This document shows positions 1 to 62,054 of a stretch of DNA of 64,000 nt, one piece after another. A model generated the notes under the pieces. It searched no databases. It was not told the origin of the DNA and saw nothing but the letters and a program-made list of their open reading frames with translations. The position numbers and the translations under genes were made by a program. The stretch's first letter is position 1, and each line of letters starts with the position of its first letter. This DNA comes from Botryllus schlosseri (lineage: Eukaryota): NCBI GenBank assembly GCA_051294905.1, contig CM119371.1:33978001-34042000 (forward strand), in the 5' to 3' direction.

Positions 1-1306
1 GCAAGGCGCGATTAACGAGAGATGAAATGAGGTTTAATTTACGCCGCTTCGGGCAGAATGAATCCCAACGAATGTAATGACCAGTGAAAGTAGGTTTTCT
101 GTACACCGACGTTAAAAACGTTTGTCCTGATCTCTCTACTAAGACTTCTAAAAAGGGAAGGGCAGCATCAGTTTCCTTTTCCACGGTAAATTGTAGAGCT
201 GGATGGAGACAATTCAATTTTTCGAAAAAAGTATTACACTCTCGCTCATTTTTAAAGGCAACAAAGGTGTCATCGACATATCTAAAATAGAGGAGAGGTT
301 TTGCGACGTTTTCAAACAATTTCTTTTCATGGTATCCCACGAATATATCGGCCAGACTAGGTCCCAACGGTGAACCCATCGAAATACCATTGCATTGACG
401 GAACATCGTGTCATTAAAGCTGAATTCAACGCTACTAGTAGCAGTTTGCAACAATTCAAGAAATATTTCACGCGGTAGTTTCGGAGGTTCAAGCGTGCCA
501 TCATAAAGCGCGTCTGCGCAGATTTCGAAAGTTTCCGACAATGGTACGTTAGTAAAAAGACTTTTCACATCAAATGAGCTGAGAAATACATTGGACGGAT
601 TTAATTTGGCGCGTTTTAATTCGTCTACAAACGTGAACGAGTCGCGAACGCAGTGGTGCGTATACAAGGATCGAACTGGCTCAATGACGGTGTTAAGCCA
701 TTTGGCTAAATTATGCTGTGCTGATCCACACATAGACAATATGGGGCGAAGAGGTACGTTATCTTTATGTGTTTTCGGTGAACCGTACATACGCGGCCGT
801 TGTGATCCCGTTGGGCGTAGAGACTCGTACAGATTTGAAGGAAGTACTCCATCCTTCTTCAGTTTGAGAAGGCGACGCTGCAGCTTCATTTCTAACTTGC
901 GCGTGTTATCGTTCATGTCGGCAGGACCCAGGTTGGTGAACTTTGACGAATCTTGAAGAATGGATTCCATTTTCATGTTGTAATCTGCCCGGTTCAAAAT
1001 CACAACTCCAGAACCTTTGTCAGGTTTTGTGATGCAAATATTTTCGTTTGAACGTAAGGATTTGATGGCTTTAAGACAATCCTTGTTCATCAGAAAATCA
1101 CCGGCGTCCACTGGGGTGCCACAATACGCATGTGCAAGATCACTGAGCTTAGCTTTCATCGCAGAAAAATATTCCGGAGATAATGGTCTATGGTGTTGTA
1201 GTTGACCAATTACTACCTCGAAATCGGCGAATATTTCTTTTCTCTTAACGTTGTTGGGAGGCAAACAAAAATCCAATCCATGAGACAATTCAAATTCTTC
1301 GATATC
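1..1306 (-). mobile_element. Penelope-like element (PLE) reverse transcriptase ORF, 5'-truncated, runs off the left window edge; left arm of an inverted duplication
   Basis: Minus-strand frame from 1306 reads DIEEFELSHGLDFCLPP...KPDKGSGVVILNRADY...MYGSPKTHK...FDVKSLFTNVP...MGSPLGP...YFRYVDD. Bases 1-1101 are the reverse complement of 1308-2408. Confidence 0.92.
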
Positions 1307-1405
1307 AGTGATTTTCTGATGAACAAGGATTGTCTTAAAGCCATCAAATCCTTACGTTGAAACGAAAAAATTTGCATCACAAAACCTGACAAAGGTTCTG
1401 GAGTT

Positions 1406-3124
1406 GTGATTTTGAACCGGGCAGATTACAACATGAAAATGGAATCCATTCTTCAAGATTCGTCAAAGTTCACCAACCTGGGTCCTGCCGACATGAACGA
1501 TAACACGCGCAAGTTAGAAATGAAGCTGCAGCGTCGCCTTCTCAAACTGAAGAAGGATGGAGTACTTCCTTCAAATCTGTACGAGTCTCTACGCCCAACG
1601 GGATCACAACGGCCGCGTATGTACGGTTCACCGAAAACAAATAAAGATAACGTACCTCTTCGCCCCATATTGTCTATGTGTGGATCAGCACAGCATAATT
1701 TAGCCAAATGGCTTAACACCGTCATTGAGCCAGTTCGATCCTTGTATACGCACCACTGCGTTCGCGACTCGTTCACGTTTGTAGACGAATTAAAACGCGC
1801 CAAATTAAATCCGTCCAATGTATTTCTCAGCTCATTTGATGTGAAAAGTCTTTTTACTAACGTACCATTGTCGGAAACTTTCGAAATCTGCGCAGACGCG
1901 CTTTATGATGGCACGCTTGAACCTCCGAAACTACCGCGTGAAATATTTCTTGAATTGTTGCAAACTGCTACTAGTAGCGTTGAATTCAGCTTTAATGACA
2001 CGATGTTCCGTCAATGCAATGGTATTTCGATGGGTTCACCGTTGGGACCTAGTCTGGCCGATATATTCGTGGGATACCATGAAAAGAAATTGTTTGAAAA
2101 CGTCGCAAAACCTCTCCTCTATTTTAGATATGTCGATGACACCTTTGTTGCCTTTAAAAATGAGCGAGAGTGTAATACTTTCTTCGAAAAATTGAATTGT
2201 CTCCATCCAGCTCTACAATTTACCGTGGAAAAGGAAACTGATGCTGCCCTTCCCTTTTTAGACGTCTTAGTAGAGAGATCAGGACAAACGTTTTTAACGT
2301 CGGTGTACAGAAAACCTACTTTCACTGGTCATTACATTCGTTGGGATTCATTCTGCCCGAAGCGGCGTAAATTAAACCTCATTTCATCTCTCGTTAATCG
2401 CGCCTTGCGCATCTGCTCACCGGAAAAACTGTCACGCGAATTGGATGATATCCACTTGATTCTCTCCAAAAATGGCTATACGAACCACAGATTAAAATGC
2501 TCCATCTCTAGGGTATTGAAAAAATCGGATACAGCTCCAAAATATGGCCCAGAAAAATGCCCGGCATTTTTACACCTACCTTGGCTAGGTAACGTGTCTA
2601 GCCGATTTGAAAAGCTTATTAAATCGGCTGTTCACCGTTGCTACTACAGCGTTAACACGCATGTAGTGTACACGACGAAACCCTTGTTACCCAACTCTCG
2701 AAAAGATGTACTTCCTGCCTTTGATGCAAGTAATGTTGTTGTTTACCAATACAAGTGCCACTGTGATAGTAGGTATGTAGGACGTACATCTCAAAGATTG
2801 TTTGAGCGTATTAAGCAGCATATCCCAAAATTGATTCGGTCAAAAACATGCGCAAATGATCGCACGGAGCTCGCACGTCAGTGCAAATTGGCTGCAAAAA
2901 CAGACTGATATGATGATTACCAAGCATATGCTTCGTCAATCGGTCAGCATCTGAGCGAAAACCTTGCCTGTGCACAGCACTATGATGACAATATGTTCAC
3001 TGTCATTGCGCGTGGTAGGTCTGTGTTTCATTTAAAAGTGTTGGAGTCTACTATTATTCAGTTGAGCAAACCTATTTTATGCAGACAGAAAGATTTCCTC
3101 TATAACCTACAAATTTCTCATTAG
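1406..3124 (+). pseudogene. PLE RT/GIY-YIG polyprotein interrupted by a premature TGA at 2906-2908
   Basis: 500-aa ORF in the track plus 71 further in-frame codons that complete the GIY-YIG domain. Confidence 0.85.
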
Positions 3125-3316
3125 TGCGTGTTGTTCCGTGCGTGTAACTGTTTATTTACAAATTGTTCTGCTACCATAGTACCGTATGTCCGTATACTTC
3201 GTAGTTTGTTATTGTTGCCATTGATACAATGCGAATTTCATGGTCTGTGATTTTGATTGTTGCGTCATACTTTGCCTTTTTGGTTTTGCTTTTAAATCTG
3301 TTTAAATCCCTTTAGT

Positions 3317-3361
3317 GTGCCGATAACTCTTGAAAAGAGGCACCCGAAAAGTCTTCGAGTT
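3317..3361 (+). ncRNA. Minimal type I hammerhead ribozyme, U3-A8 core variant, at the PLE 3' end
   Basis: Stem I AACTC 3325-3329 / GAGTT 3357-3361; core TTGAAAA; 1-bp stem II G3337-C3345; GAAA; stem III AAGTCTT; C17 at 3356. Loop GGCAC is complementary to upstream GTGCC 3317-3321. AATAAA follows. Confidence 0.75.
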
Positions 3362-3698
3362 TAATAAATATACTGCTACAATGGATGTTGTATTGAAAGC
3401 TATATTCAAATTTTGTACCACGAACCAGCTATTTGTGAAATTAGCACACATATTCTTTAGTGGATATTCTAACTTTGGTTGAAATAAGGTGTGAAATGGC
3501 TGAATATTTTGACGCTCACCGTGTTTCCCGGATTTTTGAAATATATTTTGGCACAAGTTTTGGGGTAAAATGTTTCAGTGAAATTTTTTAAAGGTGCTTT
3601 TTAGACAATCCAATTACTCCGAGATACAAACCTTAAAGTTTTTTTCAATAATAAGTAGGGTTCCTTTGAGGAGAAAAGTTTTTGTTCCGAAGAATTGT

Positions 3699-3857
3699 TG
3701 ATTGATTGATTGATTGTTGATATACAATGTTCTTTCCAATTCTCTACTAGTTGCTGACGATTACCCCTGACGAGTGTCAGCCGAAAATATTCGGGTTCAT
3801 TTCAATATGAATATACTATTTAATTGTATATTTAAGTTCTGTACCTCCAAGAAGCTC
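3699..3857 (+). mobile_element. Short (159 bp) hammerhead-carrying PLE-type insertion with 14-bp flanking direct repeat
   Basis: TTCCGAAGAATTGT at 3685-3698 and 3858-3871. The insert starts with (TGAT)n and contains the hammerhead at 3753-3796. Confidence 0.75.
3753..3796 (+). ncRNA. Minimal type I hammerhead ribozyme (canonical core)
   Basis: Stem I ACCC/GGGT; CTGACGA; G-tgtcagc-C; GAAA; palindromic stem III AATATT; UUC cleavage triplet ending 3792. Upstream GCTGACG pairs with loop TGTCAGC. Confidence 0.85.
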
Positions 3858-4484
3858 TTCCGAAGAATTGTAAAAAAATTGTGAATTTTTGACTTCGATG
3901 AATATAAATGGAGAGACCCTCTACTTATAAACAACAATAAACCATTTCAGTCCGTGAAGCATCCCACGATAGTTCAACCTTCAAATTTTCATGTTGATTG
4001 GACGATTTTTTGCCTAAAAAATGATTGGTAACTTTCAAGGTACGACAAAATTAAATTTCGAGAAAAAGCCAGTTCAATTTCGTAGCATGCAAAAGTCACA
4101 GTATTACTCTAAAAATTTAAAATTAACACAGTTTATAGTCTAAAAAGCGTCAAGGATGCCATGTATATTTCCTGCATTGTAGAGTTTTCTGCTTCTGATG
4201 GCCCCGTCCATTCTCACACAGTTCTGAATGAGGTTACTTCCATTCTCTGGTATCCCTTTTTCCATCATGATTTCCCACGGTTTGCAGTATACTCGCTTAT
4301 TAGTCGCCAATAATACGGTAAATGGCTCGAACAAATCCCGATGCCGTGTTTAGTTGCATGTCTTGTCAAACGCCATGACACACCGAATGACACTGTGATA
4401 AATGTGACACTTTAATCCAGCCTCTAACAGTCATCAATATCATATTTGATCGACAAAACAGTCACCAAACTGTCACTGAGGGTC

Positions 4485-4805
4485 CCAATATTGGCTAAGA
4501 AGGGTATCAATTTTTGCATTTGTCTGTTCTTGAGTCCGCCATCATCACTATGAGTAAACCTAGTCTATGCCAACAGAAATAATTTGTGTATCATTTGAAA
4601 ATCGCTAATTAACTTATTTTCTTTCGCTATCTCCGTGCCTGTGCTACAGTTCTCTCGTTTTTCGAGCTTCGTATATACTCTGTGTGACGTCATAGTCAGC
4701 AATAGTGATTGTTATTTGAAATAGTTATTTAAATGCTCGCATTATATTGCTGCCGGTATGCCAAATTATAGTGTCAGCTGAAAAGCTTCAGGAATAAATA
4801 TGAAT
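4485..4805 (+). mobile_element. Degenerate PLE 3' end (GIY-YIG C-terminus plus eroded hammerhead)
   Basis: Translates to HLSVLESAIITMSKPSLCQQK*FVYHLKIA, matching 3030-3120 and 8380-8475. 4755-4800 (ggtatgcc...gtgtcagctgaaaagcttcaggaataaa) matches 8611-8655 but the CTGATGA core is destroyed. Confidence 0.75.
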
Positions 4806-4814
4806 ATATTACTC

Positions 4815-4935
4815 AAAAGGCTAAAAGTGGGCCGTGCTACAAGTCGGCAGCTATGGAATGAAAATGATGAAAATTGACTTGGTGTAAATAAGCATTGTAC
4901 TCGACAAACACCATGGATACTAGAACCAACATCAA
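4815..4935 (+). mobile_element. 3' fragment of the tRNA-derived SINE seen at 10539-10824
   Basis: agtgggccgtgctacaagtcg...ggtgtaaat...cgacaaacacc is shared with 10700-10800. Confidence 0.7.
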
Positions 4936-6002: not shown

Positions 6003-6505
6003 GTAGGTATATTTACATTATCTTGCGCCATGAAAAAAGTCCCCCTGAATTATTTTGTACACAGCCTTCTTTCGGTCATTCGTTTATTCACAAATTTTGC
6101 CGATTCAAAACTCCACGACACTGCGATAAAATGATATGCTAGAAAATTGCTGAAACGACATGGATTAGTCTTTCTACCAGACACCGACCCACTTTGGCCG
6201 AAATCAGAGATATCACACTGGATGAAAAGTAGCAGGAGATAACTGTTAAGAGACCGTTTACCATCAAACTTTATGCTTAGTTGACATCACCTCTCCTGCA
6301 TAGGAACGGACATAAATAAGTCTCACGGCACGGCGCTTCTCATCTTGTAGTAAACCGCCCTATACCATCGCTACGTCGATGACAAACTCGTGATTTTCGA
6401 TAATGATAGTTTCCTACATAATATAAACAAATTTCGCCCGACATTGCAACTCACGTCGGAAAAGGAAACTACCGGTGACGGTCACTTCCTTGCATCGGTT
6501 TATAT

Positions 6506-7679
6506 CAGTGGTTCCCAACCTTTTACCACCCACGTACCACTTCGAGGTTTGATGCAGTGCCCGCGTACCACCTACATAATTTACGCAAGCCGTAGTCGGT
6601 CAAAAATGTTTTCACCATCACCACGCCATAATCACGTATTTGACCTATGTGCGGTGCAATAACCAGGGCGATTTATTTATATAAAAATCGGAGGATTTGG
6701 ACCTATAAAAACTTAATTTTGACCAAATGTTTACCTCACGCAAATTAGGTGTTTTCGCATATAATGTTACAATTGAACTACTTATATTCATTTCTGGTTG
6801 GGACTGTCTGTCCTTACGAAGTTTTGCCTGAAAAAGCGTTTTTGACTTGAAAACTGACATATTTTGACATGATTTTATTTTAATTTTAAGGATATCTGGC
6901 CCAGTAGTTATACACCACGTATTATGGTAGAGTTAATCAAAGTTTGTTGTAGCACAACGAAATATTACTTTCCTATATTCCCGGGTAGAAAGTGTCTGCC
7001 CTTTATCAGTAGCTTGCCAAGAATAGAGAAATAAGACCGTTCAAAAGCAGTAGTTGCTGACTGACAACACTGAATTTGTGCGTACAATCTACACTGCTGG
7101 TGACACACTATGTTGCTTCATTCTGACAATGTTGTCATATGACAATTTTTCATCATGCGCTTCTCTATAAAAGAACCTTGCAATGCCCAATTAGTCTTGC
7201 TTCAGTTAGGATAGCGGTAAGTTGACCATAACACCATGTCAATTGTCAACCTATTGGTTTCGTTTGACAGTTTATGATCCACGATCAGCAGACAATAAGC
7301 CGTCTACAACGGTAGGCCTATAAAGTAGGCTACAAGCTGTAAAATATCAAAATCTAAGATACAAACGAAATGAAGGGGTCAAAAAGATGTTGACTTCGTA
7401 AACAATTTTGACAATCTTTTGATTTAACGCTTCAATTCTGTCAAAATAATCGACCTAGTGATAAAAATTTCTATTAAGCTAGGCATTATCAGCCCGGGTT
7501 GATGAGATGCATGGAATTGTCAAATAAATAGTCAAAAAGCTTCAAAAAATTCAAAATCAACCCCACCAGAAATAATAACTTCCTTCGGTCAAATAACAAA
7601 AACATAATCTACTCGCGTACCACCTGGGAGACCTTCGCGTACCACTAGTGGTACGCGTACCACAGGTTGGGAACCACTG
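6506..7679. mobile_element. Non-autonomous hAT (Charlie/Buster-type) element
   Basis: TIR CAGTGGTTCCCAACC...GGTTGGGAACCACTG; TSD GTTTATAT/GTTTATAG. Inverted relative at 60824-61924. Confidence 0.9.
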
Positions 7680-8592
7680 GTTTATAGAAAGCCTGTTCTC
7701 AGGTCAATACCTTCGATGAAGCTCTATTAATCCAAAAGGTCGCAAAATCATTTTGATCGGCACCTTGGTCCATCGGGCGCTGATGATAAACGGAATGCTG
7801 AACCTGAGTACATCTGCAAAATTTTCATTAACAACGGGTACCCAGAGTATATGTCATCAAGCGCACAATAATTGATAAGTTACGTCATTGGAACGATACT
7901 AAACCATAAGAAACTTCCGAAGAAGTTTCTTGCGAAAATGGGGATGAATACATCCATCTATCTTGGATCAGCCCGGTTTCATATAAATTTGATAAACCAC
8001 TAACGTCAGCTGTCCACCGTTGTTATCTAACGTTAAAAACCTATTTTGTGTTTAGCAATGTTTCCTGAAACCCGAAATGATGTTCTCCCGACTTCGCATC
8101 AAATTCTTGTAATTGATCAATTCAAGTGCCACTGTGATTGTCGGTACATGGGGAGAACTTCCAGCGGTGGCAGGAACGTAATAAAGTACACATTTCACTG
8201 TCTATCATATCGTTCATTTCCAAGTCGCGGCAAAATAATCCGCCTGTTCTCGAAGACAAGCAAGCCAACAGAGCCGCCGCTCAAAAGTCTTCCATCAGTA
8301 AACATTTGAAAAATTCCACGTGTGCTGCCAATTAGATAGAATGAGGACATGTTTTCTATATTGGGATAGGGTCGTGATTTATTCCATTTGTTTGTTCTTG
8401 ACTCCACCATCGTCCGTACGCGCCAACCTAGTCTATGCCAACGGAGGAAATTCCTGTATCATTTAAAAATCGCACACCAACATTATTGCGTCACACTTCG
8501 CCATTTGGTTTTCAATCTTACCATGTTCTTTATCCTTTATCGTGCTGGTTGCTCAGTAAAAGTATGAATTTACTGTTAATAGTTATTTTAAA

Positions 8593-8646
8593 GCTGACAT
8601 TACTGCTGAGGGTATGCCCTGATGAGTGTCAGCCGAAAAGCGTTGA
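8593..8646 (+). ncRNA. Eroded hammerhead ribozyme motif at the 3' end of the degenerate PLE
   Basis: CTGATGA-G-TGTCAGC-C-GAAA at 8619-8638, with GCTGACA 8593-8599 complementary to the loop. Cleavage site and stem I 3' strand are not intact. Confidence 0.6.
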
Positions 8647-8750
8647 GAATAAATATGATCAGGGCTGAGTGAATACATCCGTAAATTCCGAAGTATACTT
8701 CGTACAAGAAATGACTCCGGAATAAATATTCTCTCTTTTTCTTATTGCAG

Positions 8751-11819: not shown

Positions 11820-13438
11820 TTTTCCTTGACTCGACTTGAGTCATTTCGTGTATTGACTCGACTTGTACTGGAATCATTACGCAAGTCGACCAAGTTTTAT
11901 AACTCGACACCAGAGGTGGTCAGTAACGAAGTACTTCTACTTTATGGAAGTACTCAATTAGTTTTCCTCTACTTCTACTACGTAATATTTTGTGATCTAC
12001 TTACTTACTTTTCGAAAGATAGCCTGAGGAATTTCGGGGCTGTTTTCACGGAGTACCAACATTTAATATTCATAAAAGTAGTTATGAAGTGACAAATACA
12101 TTTTTACGAAAGTATCAGTGAATATAATTTAGGTAGCGGATTGCTTGGTTCCGTTCACACCGCATTGTCGCCCATATCAAATATTTCATCACAGTAAATA
12201 TGGCCCACCATAACGTTTTAAATTGTCGTTTCGCAATCTAGCAATTACCTATCATTACCTAGCAGCCCATGACGTGTCCTGCTAATCTGGGAAATCCGGC
12301 CTTTTTGAACGTGACACCTGTTTAGCAGATCAACTTTGAAGCTTTATGGACATGAAATGACATGAAATATATTTTCCGCTTTTTAGAAGTGGAATTTGTA
12401 TTTCACTTTCAATTCCTAGTATCATACTTTGAGTTCTAATTACTTTCAGTTCTTTTGTCCGCAGAACATATATGTTGAAGCATAAAACAAGTGTAGTAAT
12501 GCTTCCATTTTCCGAAAATATAGCTACACTACATATAAATTTTACGATCCACAATATTTGTTATTAAAGTATAATAATCGCGCAAAGTGTTGAAACCGTA
12601 TCCGATACAACTTATCCGTATTGCTCTTCGCCTGAACTTGCGGCCTTATAATATGGGGTAGGGTGCCATGCCATGATATTCTCTAAAACGAGGTATTCTA
12701 GTACACAAAGGGTTGGCATCGCATTTTCATATTATTACTATAATTTGCATCCCATATGATGCGAAAGACTGCTTATCCTGTCGATAATTGATACCTCCTG
12801 GGATGCATCAATACGAATCAAGCTCTCAGCACCTTCAGCATAGCTCAATCTGCAGCGTTTGACAGTCCATGTGAACGAATTAAGACTGTTTTCAAAACTA
12901 CTTACTTACTTTTACTTACTTGAGTAGATTTAAAGTCAGTCAATTCTACTTCTACTCCAAGTAGTTTTAGGTAGCTTATGGAAGAAGTACGTCTACTCGT
13001 ACTTGGGTGGATTTTTTCGTGACTACTTCTACTTCTACTTGAGTAGTTTCCTTGACTACTTTGACCACCTCTGCTCGACACACTTACTCAAGTCTCGTAT
13101 GTCAGGACCTATAATTGAAAATAGACCAGAAACTGTCTTTTATCTGTTTTAATACACGTGTTTAGGGTGAGAAAAAGAGTATATTATGAAGTCGAGGCCT
13201 TCGATAGCACCCAAGAGTTTAAGAAGTGAGTTGAAGTTCGATACTGAACAATGAACACTTTGGCTTGGACTCGGACTCGAGTCTTAATGCTACGACTCAG
13301 ACTCAAATCCGTTGCTTCATGACTTGAACTCGGAGTTGACTCGATCGTCAATAGAACATGATTCAACTTGACTCTAGTCAAAACTATAACAGTTAAATTG
13401 ACTTGTGACTCGTAACCTTGGTGACTTGGTTGCAACCC
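11820..13438 (-). mobile_element. GACTCGAGTC-rich non-autonomous DNA element interrupted by the 11911-13073 element
   Basis: Ends in GTGACTTGGTTGCAACCC, the reverse complement of the start of the 59365-59904 element; many GACTC/GAGTC repeats. Confidence 0.7.
11911..13073. mobile_element. Non-autonomous hAT element with CTACTT/AAGTA subterminal repeats
   Basis: TIR CAGAGGTGGTCA...TGACCACCTCTG; perfect TSD CTCGACAC; second copy at 27745-29031. Confidence 0.92.
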
Positions 13439-16369: not shown

Positions 16370-16568
16370 CACATATTGCGCTAAATCTCTCTCGTATTTC
16401 GAATATGAAATTTCACTCTTTGTGAGGTCATCAGGCGGAAATGATGTTACGTATTGCACTATATCTTTCTGGTGTTTTGAATATAAAATTTTACTCTCTG
16501 TGAGGTCATCAGACGGAAATGATGTACATATTGCACTATATCTCTCTCGTATTTTGAATATGAAATTG
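16370..16568 (+). repeat. Tandem repeat, unit about 78 bp, with a further unit at about 17810-17880 beyond an inserted element
   Basis: catattgc(g/a)cta...tcgtattttgaatatgaaatt...tgtgaggtcatcag recurs at about 16372, 16450, 16527 and 17813. Confidence 0.8.
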
Positions 16569-17787
16569 CAGACCTGTACAAACTATATTGGATTTTCAAA
16601 AAGCGCAACTAGAACTAGAACTAAAACTACTCACTTTTTGTATCTCGCAACTATAACTAAAACTAGAACGACTCATTTTCAAAATCCGAAACTAGAACTA
16701 GAGCTAGAACTACTCACTTTTCAAACCCCGCAACTAGAACTAGAACTAACGACCTTTAAAATTCTGCAACTAACTAAAACACAATTATAGTTAAATGTGC
16801 AATGTGGTGAATTTTTTTGCGACTTCCTGAAATTTAGGGGCTCCCCGAAGTGTTGCAGATTAGCGTTGATCACAACTGGACATTTTACGGCCCGCAGGCC
16901 AAATTATGACCGGGAATAGCTGCTTATAATTTTGAACTATTATACATTTGAATGCGTACTAAAACCATTGGCTGAATAAGTTGAACCGAAAATGGGTTTA
17001 CCTTTAAGGCTGTTTAGTGTTTATTCATGTAATGTGGACACGTAGCCTACGTTGGCCGTATGCACATACTTATAACATGGGTTAATTTAAGTCCGAATTC
17101 TGATATAGACACGCAGTCACTCAGCTGAGATGCGAGAAGAAGAATTTCGGAAAACCTGCCTGCGATTATAAATTTCTACACCGCAGAATATAGTGCCATA
17201 TTTGGCTTGGCCTGCCAATGTATTCCTTGCTTTTCATTCTCAGAAAAATAATTGCCAACCTCTGGCGTAGGGGTTCCCAAGTCCTTAGAAGTTAAGAACC
17301 GCACTGAACTAGATTTCATTCTCCTGGAAAACACAGCAATATAATTTTATCAGACATAGAATCGATACTTCAAAAGGATGGGGTTCCTAGTCTAGAATGG
17401 GAGAGATTTCGACCCAAATATCCAACCGCTGGCTACGTCACTGTTAGTTGTGATGGCTGTGATCTAGCAATGACTGCACATTGCACAAACCTCATTCAAC
17501 AGAACACCGGTATTTCGATTCACGCAAAATGACGACAAGTGCTTTCTAGTTGTTCGGCAACTAATAATATTTTTAAATGTACAAATATAACTAGAACTAA
17601 AAGTGTTGAATTTTCAAAATATCCAACTACAACTAGAACTACTCCCTTTTCAATATCCGCAACTAGAACTAGAACTACTCCATTGTCCAAATCCGCAACT
17701 AGAACTAGAACTAGAGCTATTCAAAAAACCGTTAGTTAGTTGACCATCAACTAGCTAAATTGGTGGTTCGTACATTGTACAAATCTA
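16569..17787. mobile_element. Non-autonomous DNA element with (AACTAG)n subterminal arrays
   Basis: Imperfect TIR CAGACCTGTACAA...TTGTACAAATCTA; AACTAGAACTAG arrays at 16605-16780 and 17555-17720; it interrupts the tandem repeat. Confidence 0.7.
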
Positions 17788-18719
17788 GTAATAAGGCGAT
17801 ATTTATGTTTCATATATTGCGCTATATTTCTCTCGTATTTTGAATACGAAATAGTTCTATTTGTGATGTCATAATGAGGAATACCTATTGCTGTTGGGTA
17901 GGGTCACCATATGTTCTGTTGGACAGACCACTATAATCATTCCTACTATAGCTGACGGTAATCCCTAGTAATTTGTAGCGCACGCTCCGCGCTCACGCGA
18001 GCCCCTGATTTCTTGAATGATTACCTTCAACGTGCGATCTTCATCTTCTAGTTACGAACTGCTTGCTGGCAGTCGACTTTTAGGATTCGTGCTACTATCA
18101 TCGTCGCTGATTTTAGATGTTTTAAATACAAGAAATATGCGAGCGTCTTGACTTGGTCGATTAGGAGTCCGCGGACCTTAGGGAACGCGCCAAGATCACC
18201 GCGCGCTATAGAGTGTCGAATAAATATCAATATATCATTCAGCTGTATGATGATGTTCTGTACTCTTATGCACTTATTGGCACATGCGTTGACGTTTTGT
18301 CAAAATCGTGCCTTATGTACTAGCTTGGCGAAGGTAACAATGGAGAATTTTTTAGTATCTCACTGCTGTATAAACTTCTAAATGATAAATTGATTCCACA
18401 ATGAGATATCTGCTTTTACTTTAATCGGCACATCAGTTGACAAAATGTCAACAACCAGAAACAATGGAAGCTTGGACTTGAAAGTCACTACGTAGTAAAA
18501 AGCCATGATCACAAAGTGAAAACCATAGTACCATGCGGAAATTTTCATGTGTATTCAGCGAATCACTATCTGAACAGGAGTTGCATTATCAGTACATATG
18601 CGTCGGAAGATAATGATTTCTAAGCAGTTGTGTTGAAAAAGTTTTCCTGAGATCTAACTATTGATTTTACAATATACTTGGCATGAGACGCTAGCTATTT
18701 TGAATGCAAAGGCCGTGTC

Positions 18720-19335: not shown

Positions 19336-20098
19336 CACTTGCCTCCGACGGGTTTGACCAAGACACAGTAAATTTCAGAAGAACGAATATTGCTTGAAAT
19401 ACTGAAAAATTTGCTGCAGTGATCTGTTTCGTTGTACTTGTGTTTGAAATATACCTAGCAAAATATCGCTTATTGAGGTGTGCTTAATAATACTTTCAGA
19501 ACTACTTTCATTGCAGTAGAATTTATAAACTTGAGGACTGTTCGTGTTATCAAGAGTTAACATCACAATAAGCAACATATAGAAAGAGATTCAAGCAAAA
19601 CCCAAATTGGAAAATTATGACGTAGGCCTAACCATGAAAAAATGAACGCTAGGTAAAGTGAAGTGTGCCGGTAGTCATAACAAAGAGACAAGAGAAAATC
19701 AAATTATACATTACACAGACAATTTGCGGAAAAATGGAATATGTTATAATTGTATAGATTATAGAAACTCCTTCTGCTTCTTATTGCGCCATTAACTCTT
19801 GATAAGGGCCACACGAAATATCTCCGAGTTAATACATTCGACTACAATGAATTTAGTTCTGAAAGCAATAGTCAAGTTTAGTACGGCCAGTCACATATTT
19901 AAGGTATCTCTACATTTTATCTGAGAGCTATCAAGGTGACTAACATTTAAAAGCGGTATTTTGCTAATCACGCATCTCGGCCGAAGCCTAGTTCTCAAAT
20001 CTGAATTTGACGAATCCGGACCGGGATGGCGCTCATGCGCTTTCGGTTTCAAAATCCATGTTCTCCGTAACGCTGTTGTTGGTTTGGTCCAAAAGTGC

Positions 20099-27744: not shown

Positions 27745-29031
27745 CAGAGGTGGTCAGTAACGAAGTACTTCTACTTTTTGGAAGTACTCAAGTAGTTTTC
27801 CTCTACTTGTGGTACTTACTCAAGTAGATCTGATTTTCTCTACTTCTACTTCTACTTCATAAAATTTTGTGATCTACTTACTTACTTTTCGCAATTTTCA
27901 GTTTGTCAAGTAGAAGTAGTATAATCCCCCAATACGAAAGATAGCCTGAGGAATTTCGGGGCTGTTTTCATGGAGTACCAACATTTAATATTCGTGAAAG
28001 TCGAGTAAAGCCCAGAAATTTTGTTGCGCTTCGCGCATAGTAGTAATGGACTGACAAATATGTCTTCAAGAAAGTATCAGTGAATAATATTTAGGTACCG
28101 GATTGCTTGATTCCTCTCACACCGCATTGTCGCCCATATCAAATATTTCATCACAGTAAATATGACCCACCATAGCGTTTGAAACTACCGTTTCGCAATC
28201 TAGCAATTACCTATCATATCGTAATCTAGCAGGCCATTACGTGTCTTGCTAATATGGAAAATCCAGCTTTTTTTTAACGTTACACCTATTTTAGCAGATC
28301 ACCTTTGAAGCTTTATGGACAAAAGACTTGGAGTATGATTTCCACTTTTAGAAGTGGTATTTGTATTTCACTTTCAATTGCGAGTATCATACTTTGAGTA
28401 GTAATTACTTTCAGTTATTTTGTCTACAGGACATACATGTTGAAGCACAAAAGATAGTGTAATAATGCCTCTATTTTCCGAAAATAAAGCTACACTAATA
28501 AATATAACTTATAAGATCCACAATATTTGTTATTAACGTATACTAATCGCGCAAAGTGATGAAACCATATCCGATACAACTTCTACGTATTGCTCTTCGC
28601 CTAAACTTGGCGCCTTATAATATGGGGTAGGGCGGCATGCCATGATATTCTCTAAAAACGGGGTATTCTAGTAAACAAATGGTTAGTATCGCACTTTCAT
28701 ATTAATACTATAATTTGCATCCCATGATGCGAATCAATGTTTATTCAGTCGAATATTGATACCTCCTGGTATGCATCAATGCGAATCAAGCTCTCTGCAC
28801 CTGCCGCATAGCTCAATTCGCAGCTTTTGACTGTCCATGCGAACGAATTAAGACTGTTTTCAAAACTACTTACTTACTTGAGTAGATTTAAAGTCGGCCA
28901 ATTCTACTTCTACTTCAAGTAGTTTTAGGTGGCTCATTGAAGAAGTACTTCTACTCGTACTTGAGTAGATTTATTCGTCGCTACTTCTACTTCTACTTGA
29001 GTAGCTTTCTTGGCTACTTTGACCACCTCTG
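27745..29031. mobile_element. Second copy of the CAGAGGTGGTCA hAT element, nested in a GACTCGAGTC-rich element (about 27615-29280)
   Basis: Collinear with 11911-13073 and has the same TIRs; TSD not clean. Confidence 0.9.
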
Positions 29032-29882
29032 CGTACTAGTCATATTAGTGTTGAGACTCGAGTCCTAGTCCAAGTCCAAGTCATAGAGTTTACTTTTTAT
29101 TATTGAAATCGAGACAGGTTCAACTCACTTCTTTGAAACTCTTTGGTGATATCGAAGGCCTCGTATGCATAATCTACTAATATTTCTCAGTCACACGGAT
29201 AAAATAAGGTTCTTGACTCGAGTACAAGTTGAGTTCCCACTAAAATTGACTCAAGTCGAGTCGCGTCAATCTCCATTCTTAAAAAAGTCAACGATAAATT
29301 GGTACTTGAGGCTGATAGCCGTAGATAATAGGATATGTAAGGTATTCAAGTACCAAAGTATGCTCCAATAAGCACATCGGTTCAGTTACGAAATCGCATG
29401 GTATATCTTCGCGACCAAGGCAAATTGACCAATCACGCCACAGATACGTGATATTTTCGAAATAACGTTCGGTTATCGCGATACAGGGGCTGCCTCGTCA
29501 TGACTAGAACCCAACCAATGCCAGCCAGATTGGTGAGCCGACACCAATGTAACGGATAACCCAGGCAAATTCAGCCGATATTATGAAAATATGACAAATA
29601 GCTCAAGTCACATTACCGAATCTCCAGAGCATTTATATCAGTGGTTCTCAACGTGGGCGATATCTCTCCCCCTCCCCGGTGGGCGATTTTGAGGAACAGA
29701 GGGGGATGGATAACAAAGGGGCTGTTTAGGTGCGAAAACGTGCTAGAAAGCTAGAACGCTCCACCAGATATATTTAACAACACCACCAACAACATGTTGT
29801 GGAATCATAATAATTGCCGATATTTTTTACATTTGATAACCGATATTTCTTTCAAACTGTGACATTGACTCGATATTATCAG

Positions 29883-31186: not shown

Positions 31187-31641
31187 GCAAGCTCTATTAA
31201 TTATTATGATTCCTCTCGAATCCAAATTGAGTCATTGTGCGATCAGGCTTGATACCTTTTCGTGGTGCTAGCTACAATTCACAATGTTGAATTGATGCGA
31301 CAGTATCACTATCCTGACTGTTGCCAAATTTGGTTTACCATAAAACGTTGGTGTTTTCGGTTCGGGCACAGGTAGCCTATATCAGCTGTAGCGTAACAAT
31401 CCCGCTCTCAAGGCTCAGCGTTTTCCGGTCATTGGATACAAATCTTCTGATAATATGCTTTTTGTGTGCGCACAAATTCCCGGGTCGATATCAACATCGA
31501 ATTCGTCATGGGAGCAGACGACCGGAGCTTGGTCGCACTTACACGTGAGTGATGTTCAGAACCGGCCACTCATGTAGCCTACTCTATGCATTTATGGGCA
31601 CGGGAAGGCTGTTATAAGTGCGTATGTAGATATAGGCTACT

Positions 31642-34551
31642 TAGGGTTGTTCAGAATTGACCGACTTTCAAAAAGTCCAGGTTTTCAGTCCGATTCCCAT
31701 GCCTTATACCTTAAAAACATATTCTTGCTACTTTTTTTTGAAACTCGTCCCCTGCATCCGTGTGCACATTGAGCTGGAAGAATAGCAGCTGAAAATAGTG
31801 GATTCCTCTAAAATCTGAGTGTAACGATTTTACCTAGCTTAGTTAAAATGACATATAACATGGATTTATGCAGCTGTTGCGGTTTGGAGTGCTACAAAAC
31901 CCCACTGTATAAGGCATTCCTAGTTCAGGATATCATTTCCATGCCCCGCACTGCCTTAGAACTGCTCAAAACTACCTAAAACTGATAGTCATTTTGTTGG
32001 ATCACATATCCTACACCCCTGAAACCTACCTGGCACTGTTCATCAATTTCCTGGATCCCCATGTGCAAGAATACAATTGTAAATATAACATCCACTCACA
32101 GCCACATAATAAACATCACACGAAACGAAAAAATAAGGCAATGAAAGAGATCAACTTGGCAAAATATTACATAAATCAGGCGGATGAAATGGTTGCTTTC
32201 CAGAAATCTGCATATCTGTTACGGAGATCTTCCACAGCTTGTAGGAGGCTCGCTCGCTGTTTTTTGTCATCCGTTATGAACGCAGCATAGTCGGTACTTA
32301 ATTTTACCATACGCTCTGCTGCATCATTAACTACTTCAACAGTATTCACAAATTCTTGAGCAGTCACGAAATACGGATCAGTATGCCATTCCGAAACTGG
32401 AAGACTCAACCAATCATGTTCCACAATCCACATGTATAGCATCAAATAGAAACCACGATTCTGGCCCAATCAAATCGACCATACTCATTGACTCAGAGAC
32501 AGAGTCAGAGATCAGACTGAGATGCATACCTCTGCGAAATTGTTCAGGGATTGGCATTTTCAGCAATTTAGCAGCCATCGCTTCCTTCAGTTTGTCAGGA
32601 ATCTTTGGATTAGCCGAGAACATGGTAAATACCACCATTTCCTTAGTTAGATACCAATGATGTTTTCGCAATTTCTTGTATGCCACATCAGCAACAGTGA
32701 GATCGCATAGTGAAAAGTTTTCCATGTCATGAAGGAATTTGAAATCATTCCAAGGTGCGTCACATGCAATACCAGTTTTCAACCAAGCTGGAACATAAAA
32801 CAAAGCAATGAATGTATTGATTCGTTCCAACTTTTCAATGAACTCTTCAGAATAGTCCATTTGCTCACTCCACATGAACATTTTTTTTTACAGTACAGGA
32901 CTTGACTCATCCACCTAGCGCTATGAGTAGCACCAGGCTTGCGAAAACGATGATCAACATATTTGTCATCCAAAATCGCCAAGGTGCCTGTTGCACATTC
33001 TCTGTAGTCAACTCTTATCAAGACTTCTTTCTGCTTTCCATCATTGGGTTTCATCAGTGGACTTATTTCTTGCTTTGCTTCATCAGCTTTCATCGCCAAC
33101 CAGCTGCCTTCAATAAACTTCAGCGTTTTATAGCTTCTTGATTTATCAATATGTTTCCACTTCGTCTTGAAGGTATTAAAATCCGTGTTTTCAGGGCCTG
33201 TGGTTGTCGATCCAAACAAACACTTCCAAACCTCTCGAATGACCAGTTCTTAAATATGATGGCGACAGGCATTGATTCGGGCAGGCATTGATATTCGAAT
33301 GTATTGACATGAACATTGTTCATGTGGAGTGAGCAAATGGACTATTCTGAAGACTTCATTGAAAAATTGGAACGAATCAATACATTCATTGCTTTGTTTT
33401 ATGTTCCAGCTTGGTTGAAAACTGGTATTGCATGTGACGCACCTTGGAGTGATCTCAAATTCCTTCATGACATGAAAAACTTTCCATTATGCGATCTCCC
33501 TGTTGCTGATGTGGCATACAAGAAATTGCGAAAACATCAATGGTAACCAACTGAGGAAATGGTGGTATTTACCATGTTCTCGGCTAATCCAAAGATTCCT
33601 GACAAACTGAAGGAAGCGATGGCTGCTAAATTGCTGAAAATGCCAATCCCCGAACAATTTCGCAGAGGTATGCCTCTCAGTCTGATCCCTGACTCTGAGT
33701 CAATGAGTATGGTCGATTTGATTGGGCCATGCAGAATCGTGGTTTCTATTTGATGCTATACATGTGGAACATGATTGGTTGAGTCTTCCAGTTTCGGAAT
33801 GGCATACTGATCCGGATTTCGTGACTGCTCAAGAATTTGTGAATACTGTTGAAGTAGTTAATGATGCAGCAGAGCGTATGGTAAAATTAAATACCGACTA
33901 TGCTGCGTTCATAATGGATGACAAAAAACAGCGAGCGAGCCTCCTACAAGCTGTGGAAGATCACCGGAACAGATATGCAGATTTCTCGAAAGCAACCATT
34001 TCATCCACCTGATTTATGTAATATTTTGCCAAGTTGATCTCTTTCATTGCCTAATTTTTTTCGTTTTATGTGATGTTTATTATGTGGCTGTGAGTGGATG
34101 TTACATTTACAGTTGTATTCTTTCACATGGGGATCCAGGAAATTGATGAACAGTGCCGGGTAGGTTTCAGGGGTGTAGGACATGTGGTCCAACAAAATGT
34201 CTATCAGTTTTAGGGAGTTTTGAGCAGTTCTAAGGCAGTGTGGGACATGGAAATGATATCCTGAACCAGGAATGCCTTATATAGTGTGGTTTTGTAGCAC
34301 TCCAAACCGCAACAGCTGCATAAATCCATGTTATATGTCACTTTAACTAAGCTAGGTAAAATCGTGACACTCAGATTTTAGGGGAATCCCCTATTTTCAG
34401 CTGCTATTCTTCCAGCTCAATGTGCACACGGATGCAGGGGACGAGTTACATAAAAAAAAGTAGCCAGAATATGTTTTTAAGGTATATAAGGCATGGGAAT
34501 CGGACGGAAAACCTGGACTTTTTGAAAGTCAGTCAATTCTGAAGAACCCTA
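31642..34551. mobile_element. Palindromic hATm-like transposon derivative: two outward-facing 3' halves of a defective transposase gene
   Basis: Arms 31642-32880 and 33317-34551 are inverted copies ending in TAGGGTT(G/C)TTCAG. Translations ACRHHI, PGATHSARWM, LFYVPAWL, HHWYL and VVNDAAERMVKL match hATm-type transposases as I recall them. Frameshifts and stops in both arms. Confidence 0.85.
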
Positions 34552-35005
34552 ATATACATGTATAAAATAGATGTTTAACGAAATCTGCACATCAGCAGCT
34601 TCTGGTAGGAAATTTCAACGGGTACAACGAGTCAAATGCGCAATCTCTATGTAGGTATATGACCCTAAGAGGCGTAGCGGATTCTTTTCACGTGTACCGT
34701 ACCACCTTTCTTTGTCTTCCTGTATTCCTGATATACATATTCGTAAGAAGTGGTGAATGCGACTCGTTCTACCCGTTGACCCGAGTGTGAAAGCAAATCT
34801 TGTACCATAAAGTTTACTTTGCCTCATTCGCACCATACGTTATGGCGGAAAACATCGAAATGCACGATTTCCGATTACACTGAAATGATTCGCGAACGTG
34901 AGATGGTGATTATGGTCATCGAACAACGTGGTTTTCAACTACGAGATTCCACTCGTGTCTTTTGCATTGCCATGTTATGGAAATGATCGGACTCTGCCTT
35001 GGGAG

Positions 35006-37662: not shown

Positions 37663-38997
37663 TAGAGCCCGACCGATTATCGGCTTGCCGATAATATCGA
37701 GTCGATATCAAGCTTGGAAAGAAATATCGGTATCGGCCATTGAAGGTAAAAAAATATCGGCCATTTTCGTGACGTCACAACACGGTGGCAGGGAGTCCGA
37801 GAAGTCGCTGGAAGACGTGACGACGGTAAATTATAAAAATAAATGGCCAAGCTGCATATAGTACATACTGCATACAGGGCAGTAGGCGTGCCTTGCCTAC
37901 CTGAGAAATATTATAGATAACTAACCACTGTTATGCCCCACTGACTTCGTGGGATTCAAATATTCAGATCACTCGCGGGCGGCACCAGTCAAATGATTCC
38001 AAAATATTACTAACTCTTCACTCAATATATGCACTTTTTCGCATTCTCAGAATTGGGTGTCAATGTCAGCGATTTTCTCCTGACGATGACTACAATCACA
38101 ACTCCGCTGTCGGGTGGTTATAATGTGGCCTATGAATATACTCAAAATTTGCCATCTTGAAGGAATATTTATTAGTAGTATTTCTTACTAGAAATTCGAG
38201 AAATGTGTTGGATAAAATCACGCAATTTTCAACATATAGCCTACTCAGAATTTCTTCGCGGGCCGAATGAAATCATTTGGCGGGTCGTATGTCTGACACC
38301 CCTGATGTAGCTATACTGTTACTGACATATTTTATTAGCAGTTCTACGTGTGTGTGAGTGATACAACGCATTTTTGCATGTATATTTACCTTTAAATTCG
38401 TTATTTGATTCAAGATTAATGACCAATTAATCTCTTTAACACAGCTAATAAAAGATAATGAATTTGAATGATCACTCATACTTCGAAAATTCAATTTGAC
38501 TTGAATTGTGACTTGACTCGTGACTTGACTTGACTTGACTCGAGTCACCTCCAAAAAACGAGTGACTTGACTTGACTCGAGTCACCTTTGAAAATCGATT
38601 GACTTGACTTGACTCGAGTCAAAATGTGCAATGACTCGAGATGACTCGTGACTCGAAGGTAGGGACTTGATCCCAACACTGCTATATACATCATTTATGG
38701 AGTACCACAGAAGTTCACTCCTTGGAGAAAGGGCCGAGAAATTGTGCTTCGTGAACTGTAATCTGCAATTCCTGGATTGGTGCTTTTGATATATTTTTAT
38801 AGCCCCTAGCTAGATCATTTATTTCATGTTCAAGCATATCAATGGCTGTAAAGTTGTTGAAATAAATGCTCTGAGGTGTTAAATATGGGCTTTGAGCTAG
38901 ATTCCATATCGGCTGAATATATCAGGGTTATCGGTGGTGGTACTGGATATCGGTCTTATCGGTATCGGCTCAGAAATCCATTATCGGTCGGGCTCTA
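37663..38997. mobile_element. hAT (Ac-type) non-autonomous element with TATCGG repeats and nested fragments
   Basis: TIR TAGAGCCCGACCGAT...ATCGGTCGGGCTCTA; perfect TSD GTGATCAT; internal GACTT/GACTCGAGTC array at 38495-38680. Confidence 0.9.
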
Positions 38998-56551: not shown

Positions 56552-56692
56552 GTAAGGGAGAGTTCTATTCGTTAATTAATGGTGCATTACATGAGACAAA
56601 CCTTAAGTTGCAAAATAAGTGACATTGATATGACTATGAGGTCACCTAGCATAATACACTAGCAACATCTATACATATTTCTGCATTTTTAG

Positions 56693-57721
56693 ACTTTGGA
56701 AACGGGAAAGATGAAAAGATGATTGGCGACATATCATCCCAATTCGGACACAATCAGATATTTGCTGATAACAAAAAACCAAGGACGATAGAAGCGATGA
56801 AGACGTTAATGCAGAACCTCAAAGGAGTTTCCACTAATAATGATAAGAACATACCTGTTGCGCTGAGACAGCTTCTATCCAGGGCACTTCGACAACCAAC
56901 CAGTTCAGATACTCAAACATCTTCTTCACTGTATTCCGACTTTGATGGTGACTCGAATAAAATTCTGACGATGTTGCTCAATGCCTTTCCAACGTTGAAA
57001 GGGAACATTCCAGCACAAGACATCATAATGCAAAAACTCATGGCGTCCAGTCCAAAACTACTGGATACCTTGAAACTGTTGCGAAAGAGAAGCAAAGTAC
57101 CTAAAAATCTTCAAGATACGCCATCTGAAGATCTCATCAGGCTTTTGGACAATCACCACAAGGCAAGCGAGTCTCAGAACAACTTTCACCAGACAGCTAC
57201 AGGTACGTACGATACTGACTCCAATACTGTTACAAAGGCTAGGAACAGTCAAAATATCAACAGTGACGTAATACAGCCGTTGATACAATCGACCGAGCCG
57301 TCAACCACAGACATCGAAACGACTAAAGACACACCCAACAGTTATTTAAATTCAGACCTTGATAGCGGGAATATATCTGAACTGCAATCAAAAGATTTTG
57401 AATTATATGAACGAGGAGGTATAAACGTACACGAGTTGATAATGTTCAGAAATTTACTGAAGAATGGCATCACACTGCAAGAGATCAAAGAAAAATATCA
57501 TTTAGATTCGCCACAAATCGTGGGTTGGAATCTTTCCAGTGGCAATGTCGGCGGTAAAGATAAATCCAATGATTTAATTTACCATGCAATCGATGACGAT
57601 CAATCCAATCCAGACATGGATGTGAATCTGTCTAAAGAGAAACTTTCAAGAAATATGGACACTTTGAATTTCCCAGATGATCGGTCCATACCGGAAGGCG
57701 GGGAAGTTAGAAAGAGTTATG
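56693..57721 (+). CDS. GT32 paralog C large S/T/N/D-rich stem exon
   Basis: ttttag| 1029-nt open frame (ORF 56719-57747) ending TATG|gtagga, phase 1 to 1. Confidence 0.8.
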
Positions 57722-58389
57722 GTAGGATATATACCAGAATAAAATGATCAGGATTTCATTCTGATGTATTTCTAGCGAAATTCCAGAAGGTTAGGGGTTA
57801 TTGTGGTGCCGATTGTTGACACATTCTAATTGGTATCTTGTGACCACGACAATATGCTTTTATCGCTTAACAGGTGTCACAAAAGACTGCGATTGAACAT
57901 CTTTAGGCCTTAAAACACGAAGGTTCGAATCACAGCCAATTCGAATTGAATTACTACTTTCATATATTTTCAGCTGAAATAAAATGCCCGTGTCTTAAAT
58001 GAGCGCGGACAATACACACATTATTGCAATAATTGTATATTTTAAGTTAACGCAACGTATGTCATTGCCCTATATGCCTGAATGCACTGCTGCTACAGGT
58101 TTACCCGGACTTTAAGGCAAGGTAACAGGGCTGCTCGGAAGTGTCAAAATCCCTTTGAAAAATGAGGAATCACAAAATTGGCTTTCGCGCCATATCATCA
58201 TTCCTGTTGAATCGATACGAATCATTTTATTCTATTATCGAAACACCAGATGCGATCCGAAAAGCCGCATTCCAATATGGCGACATCAAAATAACTTGAA
58301 TCTATTTTAAATCGGTGACTCAAATTGCCTGCTCGTACCTGCGATATTCTTGTAAACCCGCGAAAGAATAGTTAAGACATGTCATTAAC

Positions 58390-60351: not shown

Positions 60352-60823
60352 GTAAGTTCAGAGGTGAGGGAAGAATAGTCAACAACGTTACTTAAGTATA
60401 CGTTGAAGTAGTCTAATACCGATTATTTCTACTCAATTACGAATAGCACTAGCGCTAACCACGATATTTTAAAAGTGCTCCAAGTAGAATCAGGGAGCGG
60501 GAGGTCTGAAATGATGTAGTTTGAATATGTAGGTTTGTTTGAAGCGTGGCACACTTCTGTAGTCAGTCGCACGTGGCAGCTTTCAAAATTGAAATATGCA
60601 TTATCGCACCTAACCCGGAATGACTGGTGACAATACAAAATAGATGCACATTTCCAATATATATTCATTTCACTTTGTCATGGGCTATTTCGAACGTTCA
60701 TCATGCCGATTTAAAGAATGCAAATCTTTGACAAACTACGCTCTAGTTTACAAAATGTATTGTTACTAGTAAATAGTGTCACTTCAAATGCGTTGAGTAT
60801 ATAAAAGTGGAAATATTCTAAAA

Positions 60824-61924: not shown

Positions 61925-62054
61925 TTCTAAAACGATATCCACTTTGGTAAGCATAAGCAGTACATGTAGCCTACGTAAATCCCCGGAAACTCCAGAAGAA
62001 TCTCCTTACCAAACAGATTAGTTAGTGGTCGTTAAGTCATTATTTCATTGGCAG

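Follow-up and report, generated by a model that had tools for sequence, protein, structure and literature searches.

On the plus strand near the start of the window, the whole 64-kb stretch of Botryllus schlosseri DNA that was analysed, two short hammerhead motifs (HH1 and HH2) follow each other closely. The locus raises the question whether both belong to a single unit or mark the ends of two separate elements, and what takes the place of helix II in each of them. The reading favoured here, with a probability of roughly 80%, is that HH1 and HH2 are the 3′-tail hammerheads of two Penelope-like families, which became neighbours through a 159-nt insertion about 265 nt past the end of the first element, that pairing of loop II replaces helix II, and that each motif is predicted to cut only as a dimer of like with like.

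Layout of the two motifs

HH1 (3317..3361, plus strand) is a type I hammerhead motif with a U3-A8 core, a 7-nt loop II, a 5-bp pseudoknot and the stem III AAGUCUU. Its 5′ part consists of GTGCC (3317–21), GAT, the stem I strand AACTC (3325–29), the core TTGAAAA (3330–36) and G3337, and its 3′ part of the loop AGGCACC (3338–44), C3345, GAAA (3346–49), the stem III region AAGTCTT (3349–55), C3356 and GAGTT (3357–61). HH2 (3753..3796, plus strand), of the same type and with a loop II of the same length, has a C3-G8 core, a 7-bp pseudoknot and the stem III AAUAUU; it reads GCTGACG (3753–59), ATT, ACCC (3763–66), CTGACGA (3767–73) and G3774, followed by TGTCAGC (3775–81), C3782, GAAA, AATATT (3786–91), C3792 and GGGT (3793–96). 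Both contain the type I core CUGANGA...GAAA...UH with a 3-8 pair, in canonical form in HH2 and as the U3-A8 variant in HH1, which is a known variant of PLE hammerheads (PMC4209133). In each, a single G10.1-C11.1 pair represents helix II, with no extra nucleotide after A9, and stem III is minimal and palindromic. Stem I is open-ended, pairs across the predicted cut site (5 bp in HH1, 4 bp in HH2) and covaries across families.

Direct reading and a descriptor scan of both strands bear out the initial annotation, which had described two minimal hammerheads of this layout with U3-A8 and C3-G8 cores, and its assignment to Penelope-type type I hammerheads with palindromic stem III holds as well. The distance between the predicted cut sites, after C3356 and after C3792, came to the same 436 nt when recomputed. 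The claim of covariation in every helix stands for stem I and the pseudoknot and needs qualifying for the stem III regions, which are palindromes of different length without column-by-column covariation. A loose descriptor run over both strands of the 64 kb returned five candidates, three of them with a palindromic stem III region, and the G-N7-C layout was confined to HH1 and HH2. The full descriptor (core, G-N7-C, stem I of at least 4 pairs, pseudoknot of at least 5), devised after the motifs had been seen, matched twice in the window and never in 150 simulated 64-kb sequences searched on both strands. Judged by their letters, HH1 and HH2 are real motifs and no chance occurrence. Rfam gave no match at gathering score anywhere in the window and no hammerhead family at E≤10 within 3250–3900, most likely because its models expect longer stems II and III.

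Two probable element ends separated by unique DNA

The HH1 core begins 206 nt past the stop codon of a 5′-truncated Penelope-like ORF (1308..3124, plus strand; in-frame TGA at 2906–2908, TAG at 3122–3124) that combines a reverse transcriptase (Pfam RVT_1, E 5.7e-11) with a GIY-YIG-type C-terminus, read from the translation by its VVY...YVGRT motif. The homologues P0004 and P0113 match PF01541, which we take to be the GIY-YIG family. A single ORF of RT followed by a C-terminal GIY-YIG endonuclease corresponds to the EN+ architecture of the Penelope/Poseidon type, and an inverted 5′-truncated copy as well as a 3′ tail, both traits of EN+ PLEs, are present. No Zn-finger-like linker was seen by eye in the translation, which, following the description in PMC8557442, disfavours Neptune and Nematis. 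The protein search yielded 4104 relatives among 8000 scored candidates, the homologues being up to 900 aa long and, apart from one near-identical match, 47–63% identical; in viral contigs no relative was found.

Upstream lies an inverted copy of the ORF with a longer 5′ part (1..1351, minus strand; 450 aa), which continues beyond the window edge. Positions 1–1101 mirror 1308–2408 with 99.5% identity over 1101 nt, so that this inverted 5′ copy forms a near-perfect 1101-nt inverted repeat (1–1307 / 1308–2408) around a 206-nt spacer, and the near-identity of the arms points to a young insertion. Inverted, truncated copies with a tail have been described for PLEs (PMC8557442, PMC11167929). The 3′ untranslated tail of the first element, part of its pLTR, extends over 3125..3434 (plus strand) as judged from contig depth and contig ends, family copies stopping at about 3424–3434. 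The position of HH1 in the 3′ pLTR of a PLE is therefore read directly from the ORF upstream and the contig ends. A decayed tail of the HH1 family (19780..19894, plus strand; paralogue match E 3e-11) is found further along, and just upstream of it part of the first element's tail recurs in inverted orientation (19486–19626, minus strand).

HH2 resides in a 159-nt insert (3699..3857, plus strand) that starts with a TTGA microsatellite and most likely represents the 3′ tail of a second, far more abundant Penelope-like family. The insert is bordered by the left (3685..3698) and right (3858..3871) copies of a 14-nt target-site duplication (TTCCGAAGAATTGT), both on the plus strand. Among the 11 direct repeats of 14 nt that lie 100–300 nt apart in the window, the pair flanking HH2 is the only one outside tandem arrays. 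Tandem arrays at 16371–16772, 17589–17713 and 38526–38621 consist of 36–42-nt and 78-nt units, AACTAG-rich and TGACT-rich, and are likely parts of other repeats. Further afield the window holds a 1.2-kb inverted repeat pair of 94.5% identity (31641–32880 / 33317–34552), long dispersed repeats (12013–13074 / 27935–29032 and 6494–7684 / 60819–61936) and a 365-aa open frame on the minus strand (56650–57747) with no Pfam match at E≤0.01.

An empty site corresponding to the HH2 insert is represented by contig 14 of sample X6 (953 nt; depth 80.5, equal to that of the flanking contig 15), in which 3430–3684 is joined directly to 3858–4231, with one repeat copy and without the 159 nt; the filled site is present in contigs 6 and 7 of sample X1. 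A single contig from one sample, among the 16 rows listed of about 64,700, provides the empty site, and a precise deletion between the repeats could be its alternative origin. The first 324 nt of the same contig find no placement on 2901–3429, which suggests that the X6 haplotype lacks the first element too.

Contigs of the HH2 family end at 3815, 3820, 3852 and 3860 on the 3′ side, with fixed ends about 40 nt apart (3820 and 3860) in addition to inverted and go-back joints, in agreement with the tail and the inversions known from PLEs (PMC8557442, PMC11167929). That HH2 lies in the 3′ pLTR of a PLE is deduced from sister copies and from a tail motif. Endonuclease-linked copies show no alignment to the 50 nt that precede HH2, so no protein-coding parent of the exact HH2 family was seen. 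Two decayed Penelope 3′ ends with HH2-like motifs lie nearby on the plus strand, one at 4499..4822 (endonuclease C-terminal remnant 4499–4606, E 5e-7; broken motif 4747–4822, E 0.034), the other at 8340..8660 (endonuclease remnant 8340–8477, E 2e-9; motif at about 8601–8650, E 0.0018, with a loop II identical to that of HH2). A weak HH2-tail remnant was noted at 18215–18266 (E 0.19), and further decayed Penelope RT fragments were located by tblastn at 6363–6536 and 7696–8056, 7696–8660 being probably a single old element. The first 20 kb of the window contain at least five such tails, so that two adjacent intact ones would need no special cause.

The flanks of HH1 and HH2 are alike only over the 44-nt motif itself (73%). 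A tail motif, TATATT-AA-TT-TGTAC, is common to HH1 (3401–3419), HH2 (3827–3845) and a related metagenome family, L202 (351–369); it lies 35–45 nt beyond the predicted cut and, in both window families, some 15 nt short of the outer 3′ end. This motif is a candidate reverse-transcription start signal.

Between the two tails lies single-copy flanking DNA (3435..3684, plus strand) that is part of neither element. In two DNA runs the summed contig depth reached 1.1e5 and 9.6e5 over HH1 and 1.8e6 and 8.0e6 over HH2, as against 14–51 (X1) and 86–517 (X6) in the spacer bins 3451–3700; since such depth is no copy number, it is taken to show no more than that two repeated families flank unique DNA. In the DNA contigs HH2 exceeds HH1 by a factor of 8–16, and the ratio of RNA read depth is higher still. 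Coverage of both motifs is heavy in two raw RNA runs, of which 6% and 3% were read. Of the reads placed from the bulk run, 86% continue into unlike sequence and hence stem from other copies. Single-cell reads (X21) over 3100–3400, the Penelope tail, show a strand bias of about 8:1, and most of them (354/413) carry G3351T in stem III, so that one particular copy elsewhere is likely transcribed.

The initial annotation had suggested that cleavage at both sites would jointly release a 436-nt RNA which could circularise, as expected of one element or cassette with two ribozymes. Both motifs are indeed intact and on the same strand, their spacing falls within the circle sizes given for animal retrozymes (PMC7229834), and the 5′ stem I strand of HH1 can pair with the 3′ strand of HH2 (−2.6 kcal/mol). 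However, the reciprocal stem I (+0.9 kcal/mol) and a mixed stem III (+2.0 kcal/mol) are unfavourable, HH2 sits in a separable insert with its own 14-nt duplication and an empty-site contig, and both motifs are high-copy around a single-copy spacer. Moreover, related elements carry one motif per end: at the loci listed no second full motif occurs within 900 nt of an element end, and the second core-pattern match present at two related loci has stem I in neither case. No RNA reads fall on 3501–3700 in the two partly read runs (6% and 3%; animals of unrecorded genotype), no RNA end pile-up occurs in these runs at C3356 or C3792, the libraries being of a kind that shows ends poorly, and no joint among those listed (15 rows; 187 others; 101 X21 rows at a microsatellite left out) has RNA support. 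Because genotypes are unrecorded and such libraries detect circles and cyclic-phosphate ends poorly, the RNA data weigh lightly against a circle and say nothing on cleavage. Taken with the separable insert and the depth pattern, they leave the 436-nt circle unsupported, and it is regarded as extremely improbable.

Animal non-LTR retrozymes (PMC7229834; Li 2026) resemble the locus in their type I hammerhead, short repeat, long target duplication and PLE kinship. They are described as tandem copies of a single unit with canonical hammerheads and circles, whereas HH1 and HH2 belong to two unlike elements around unique DNA, with no tandem repeat of one unit carrying the same hammerhead. Alternatively, HH2 would belong to a short non-autonomous element, of the kind of a solo pLTR or a monomeric retrozyme, that relies on proteins of Penelope elements, and not to the truncated tail of a coding element. 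The excess of HH2 over HH1 in DNA and RNA depth and the upstream 50 nt unlike endonuclease-linked copies fit such an element, as do the long duplications known for animal retrozymes (PMC7229834) and the derivation of retrozymes from pLTRs proposed in a preprint (10.64898/2026.07.22.740005). It is considered unlikely, given that a fixed 3′ end is better backed than a 5′ end (364 loose ends in X1 at 3860 versus 129 at 3748), that the sister motifs in the window come after ORF remnants, and that the locus contains no tandem array.

Predicted pairing of loop II with the upstream strand

Elements related to the Penelope-like ORF were collected with an alignment of 31 homologues and the C-terminal stretch from the window, which retrieved at least 79 metagenome loci. 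Among the loci listed, 50 ORF ends were mapped, 43 of them with at least 300 nt downstream, and a core with a 7-nt loop II is present in 34 of these 43, in 30 cases at 122–194 nt past the ORF end; most belong to one redundant family, and about three families are independent (the L002 type, L030 and L033/34). When motifs were picked by stem I alone, the pseudoknot comprised 7 bp in 18, 5 bp in three and 3 bp in two of 23 distinct motifs, 21 of which belong to one family. In the L002 family, the commonest relative, position 17 is U and the core pair is U3-G8, or C3-G8 in a minority of copies (L045, L058). The same metagenome loci also contain min-HHR-like motifs of the ordinary kind, whose helix II has 6 bp (L009, minus strand; L055, plus strand).

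A scan with a pattern that left loop II unspecified gave 126 viral and prokaryote matches, the prokaryote part comprising 121 of an estimated 260. Stem I of at least 4 pairs was present in three of these core-only matches, a pseudoknot of at least 5 pairs in 17 and both in two; none of the five viral matches has stem I. Both full motifs are Penelope tails in one MAG contig, beside Penelope endonuclease sequence, and constitute a fourth outside family, L202; the contig is likely host contamination. This contig (contig 3 of the bacterial MAG G001, 34% GC; L202, L203, L206–L208) carries three Penelope tail copies with an inverted fragment and an intact pseudoknotted hammerhead, and is likely animal DNA binned as bacterial.

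Across one representative each of six families (HH1, HH2, L002, L030, L033 and L202), 39 of 42 pseudoknot pairs are kept. Because MAFFT placed the variable linker wrongly, a script scored the pairs at a given register, which for L030, L033 and L202 is the best of seven offsets. Only two of 720 strand permutations reach 39 pairs (mean 26.2), the second of which swaps families with the same 5′ strand. Changes on both sides are found in four of the seven columns (columns 2–5), column 6 is invariably C-G, and in column 7 a constant G faces U or A. The pairs are contiguous over 6–7 positions in five families and over five in HH1, with duplex energies of −8.1 to −9.6 kcal/mol; the linker between pseudoknot strand and stem I measures 3–5 nt, and the core pair, C3-G8, U3-A8 or U3-G8, is always able to form. 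Some copies have a short helix IV of 2–3 pairs around the pseudoknot strand, but the six families do not share it, and it was therefore rejected.

The proposal that the upstream strand and loop II pair as a selected structure thus gains support from compensatory change in four further families. Since six families are few and related, this covariation is taken as support, without a formal significance test. A coincidental pairing, or a functionless alternative fold, would have to be reconciled with the two-sided changes in four columns and with the contiguous runs of 6–7 pairs, given that 6 or more pairs appear in only five of 124 non-Penelope matches granted the same offset freedom. In its favour, 17 of the 126 core matches reach five pairs at some offset, which equals the full count of HH1, and L002 and L030 can form an ordinary stem II of 2–3 bp instead; overall, coincidence appears highly unlikely. 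On the strength of the sequences, it is likely that a pseudoknot of 5–7 bp between loop II and the strand upstream of stem I replaces helix II.

Relation to known hammerheads and predicted dimer cleavage

The initial annotation had taken it as established that minimal hammerheads of PLEs possess a very short stem II. This is wrong as stated, since the min-HHRs of metazoan PLEs described by Cervera and De la Peña (PMC4209133) combine a larger-than-usual helix II with a minimal helix III: in Fig. S3 of that paper, helix II has 3 or more pairs in 56/56 motifs, most of them with an extra nucleotide after A9. HH1 and HH2 share with these min-HHRs the type I topology, the position in the 3′ pLTR, the short stem I, the palindromic minimal stem III, G10.1-C11.1, the U3-A8 variant and the occurrence of many solo truncated copies. 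They differ in that helix II is reduced to one pair, the extra nucleotide between A9 and G10.1 is missing and a covarying pseudoknot is present, while no tertiary contact was found in the min-HHRs, according to the available part of PMC4209133.

Among hammerheads in general, a base-paired contact that aligns stems I and II occurs in about 40% of representatives, and a tested example with a one-pair stem II became inactive once its pseudoknot was broken (Perreault 2011, PMC3088659). The ribozyme tested there is of type II and comes from a metagenome, the stem-length analysis excluded repetitive type I motifs, and the available account of short-stem-II pseudoknotted hammerheads in PMC3088659 draws no link to PLEs. 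A close structural counterpart is the PK hammerhead PDB 8YDC (Zhan 2024, PMC11300833), where a pseudoknot on a single G10.1-C11.1 pair replaces helix II, just as loop II pairs upstream of this one pair in all six families. The G of column 7, opposite U or A, resembles the G:A cap at the same end of the 8YDC PK helix. The 8YDC fold differs in its loop of 6 nt, its helix IV of 5 bp, its A-rich triplex linker and its long helix III. In the motifs described here the loop measures 7 nt and the linker 3–5 nt, stem III is too short to form within a monomer, and neither an A-rich triplex linker nor a conserved flanking stem such as helix IV is found in the six families.

In the literature search, with Lünse 2017 and Arkhipova 2017 outside the comparison, no paper on a pseudoknotted one-pair-stem-II hammerhead in PLEs was found. 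Lünse, Weinberg and Breaker reportedly described in 2017 PLE-associated dimeric hammerheads with a diminished palindromic stem III, for which dimer cleavage was predicted; matched by description only, that set may already contain the pseudoknotted form. The available parts of PMC5737381, PMC10085705, PMC6155905 and PMC7936874 give no description of it, and a motif search in one file of the Craig 2021 supplement returned no hammerhead. Pseudoknotted one-pair stems II and dimeric Penelope hammerheads are each known separately, and their combination is absent from the 56 motifs of PMC4209133.

Stem III cannot close in a monomer, and monomer folding with a program that omits pseudoknots gave no hammerhead (z −0.58 and −0.92). 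In the predicted monomer fold, the core CUGAC of HH2 can pair with its own loop II (3767–3781). The upstream strand of HH2 has the same letters as this core, so that pairing of the pseudoknot strand with loop II could release the core from such an inactive hairpin; this core/loop II complementarity is absent in HH1 and the L002 family.

A double-hammerhead route between identical pLTR copies has been described (PMC6765202). In the reading preferred here, a tandem pLTR-ORF-pLTR transcript would bring together two identical motifs that pair through their palindromic stem III. The pseudoknot helix would stack on G10.1-C11.1 alongside stem I, tethered by the 3–5-nt linker as in the solved PK hammerhead, and cleavage after C17 would free a unit-length element RNA. 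The stem III duplexes are weak in both like pairs (−1.5 kcal/mol for HH1-HH1, −0.2 kcal/mol for HH2-HH2) and unfavourable in the mixed one, and because just one stem I can form between HH1 and HH2, a mixed dimer is predicted to cut at most one site. At this locus an identical partner in cis is missing for HH1 as well as for HH2, which makes both of them likely passengers. Genomic copies end 23–78 nt past the predicted cut with the whole motif uncut, and the copied templates are thus likely uncut RNA.

The same uncut copies fit a different role, in which the pseudoknot is real and the motif acts mainly as a signal for protein binding or folding, protein-assisted or non-cleaving, with cutting dispensable for transposition. 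An anole PLE hammerhead was reported to cut only with protein and to be dispensable for insertion in vitro (PMC11167929), min-HHRs are poor cleavers (PMC4209133), and U3-G8 together with U17 is found in L002, the commonest relative. In contrast, the catalytic core is kept in six of six families with positions 3 and 8 always pairable, and pseudoknots confer high-speed cleavage on other hammerheads with a one-pair stem II (PMC3088659). Such a signal role is judged rather unlikely.

Implications for Penelope-like elements

Tentatively, and with the balance somewhat against it, a whole Penelope clade may carry a so far undescribed hammerhead subtype of about 44 nt: a PK hammerhead without helix IV, in which a 7-bp pseudoknot provides the tertiary contact and a palindromic stem III makes cutting dependent on dimers. 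HH1 and HH2 expose a blind spot of ribozyme searches. As Rfam misses them, and descriptors that require helix II would do so too, some elements regarded as hammerhead-less may carry the subtype. The HH2 insert, present in some haplotypes and absent from others, is simply a marker of an element that was active recently. The known Penelope hammerheads are poor cleavers in vitro and have no tertiary contacts, and a pseudoknotted one would be a clean test of the role of the ribozyme; if the proposed structure is true, the pseudoknot would supply the tertiary contact missing from other PLE hammerheads and turn the motif into a fast, dimer-gated switch.
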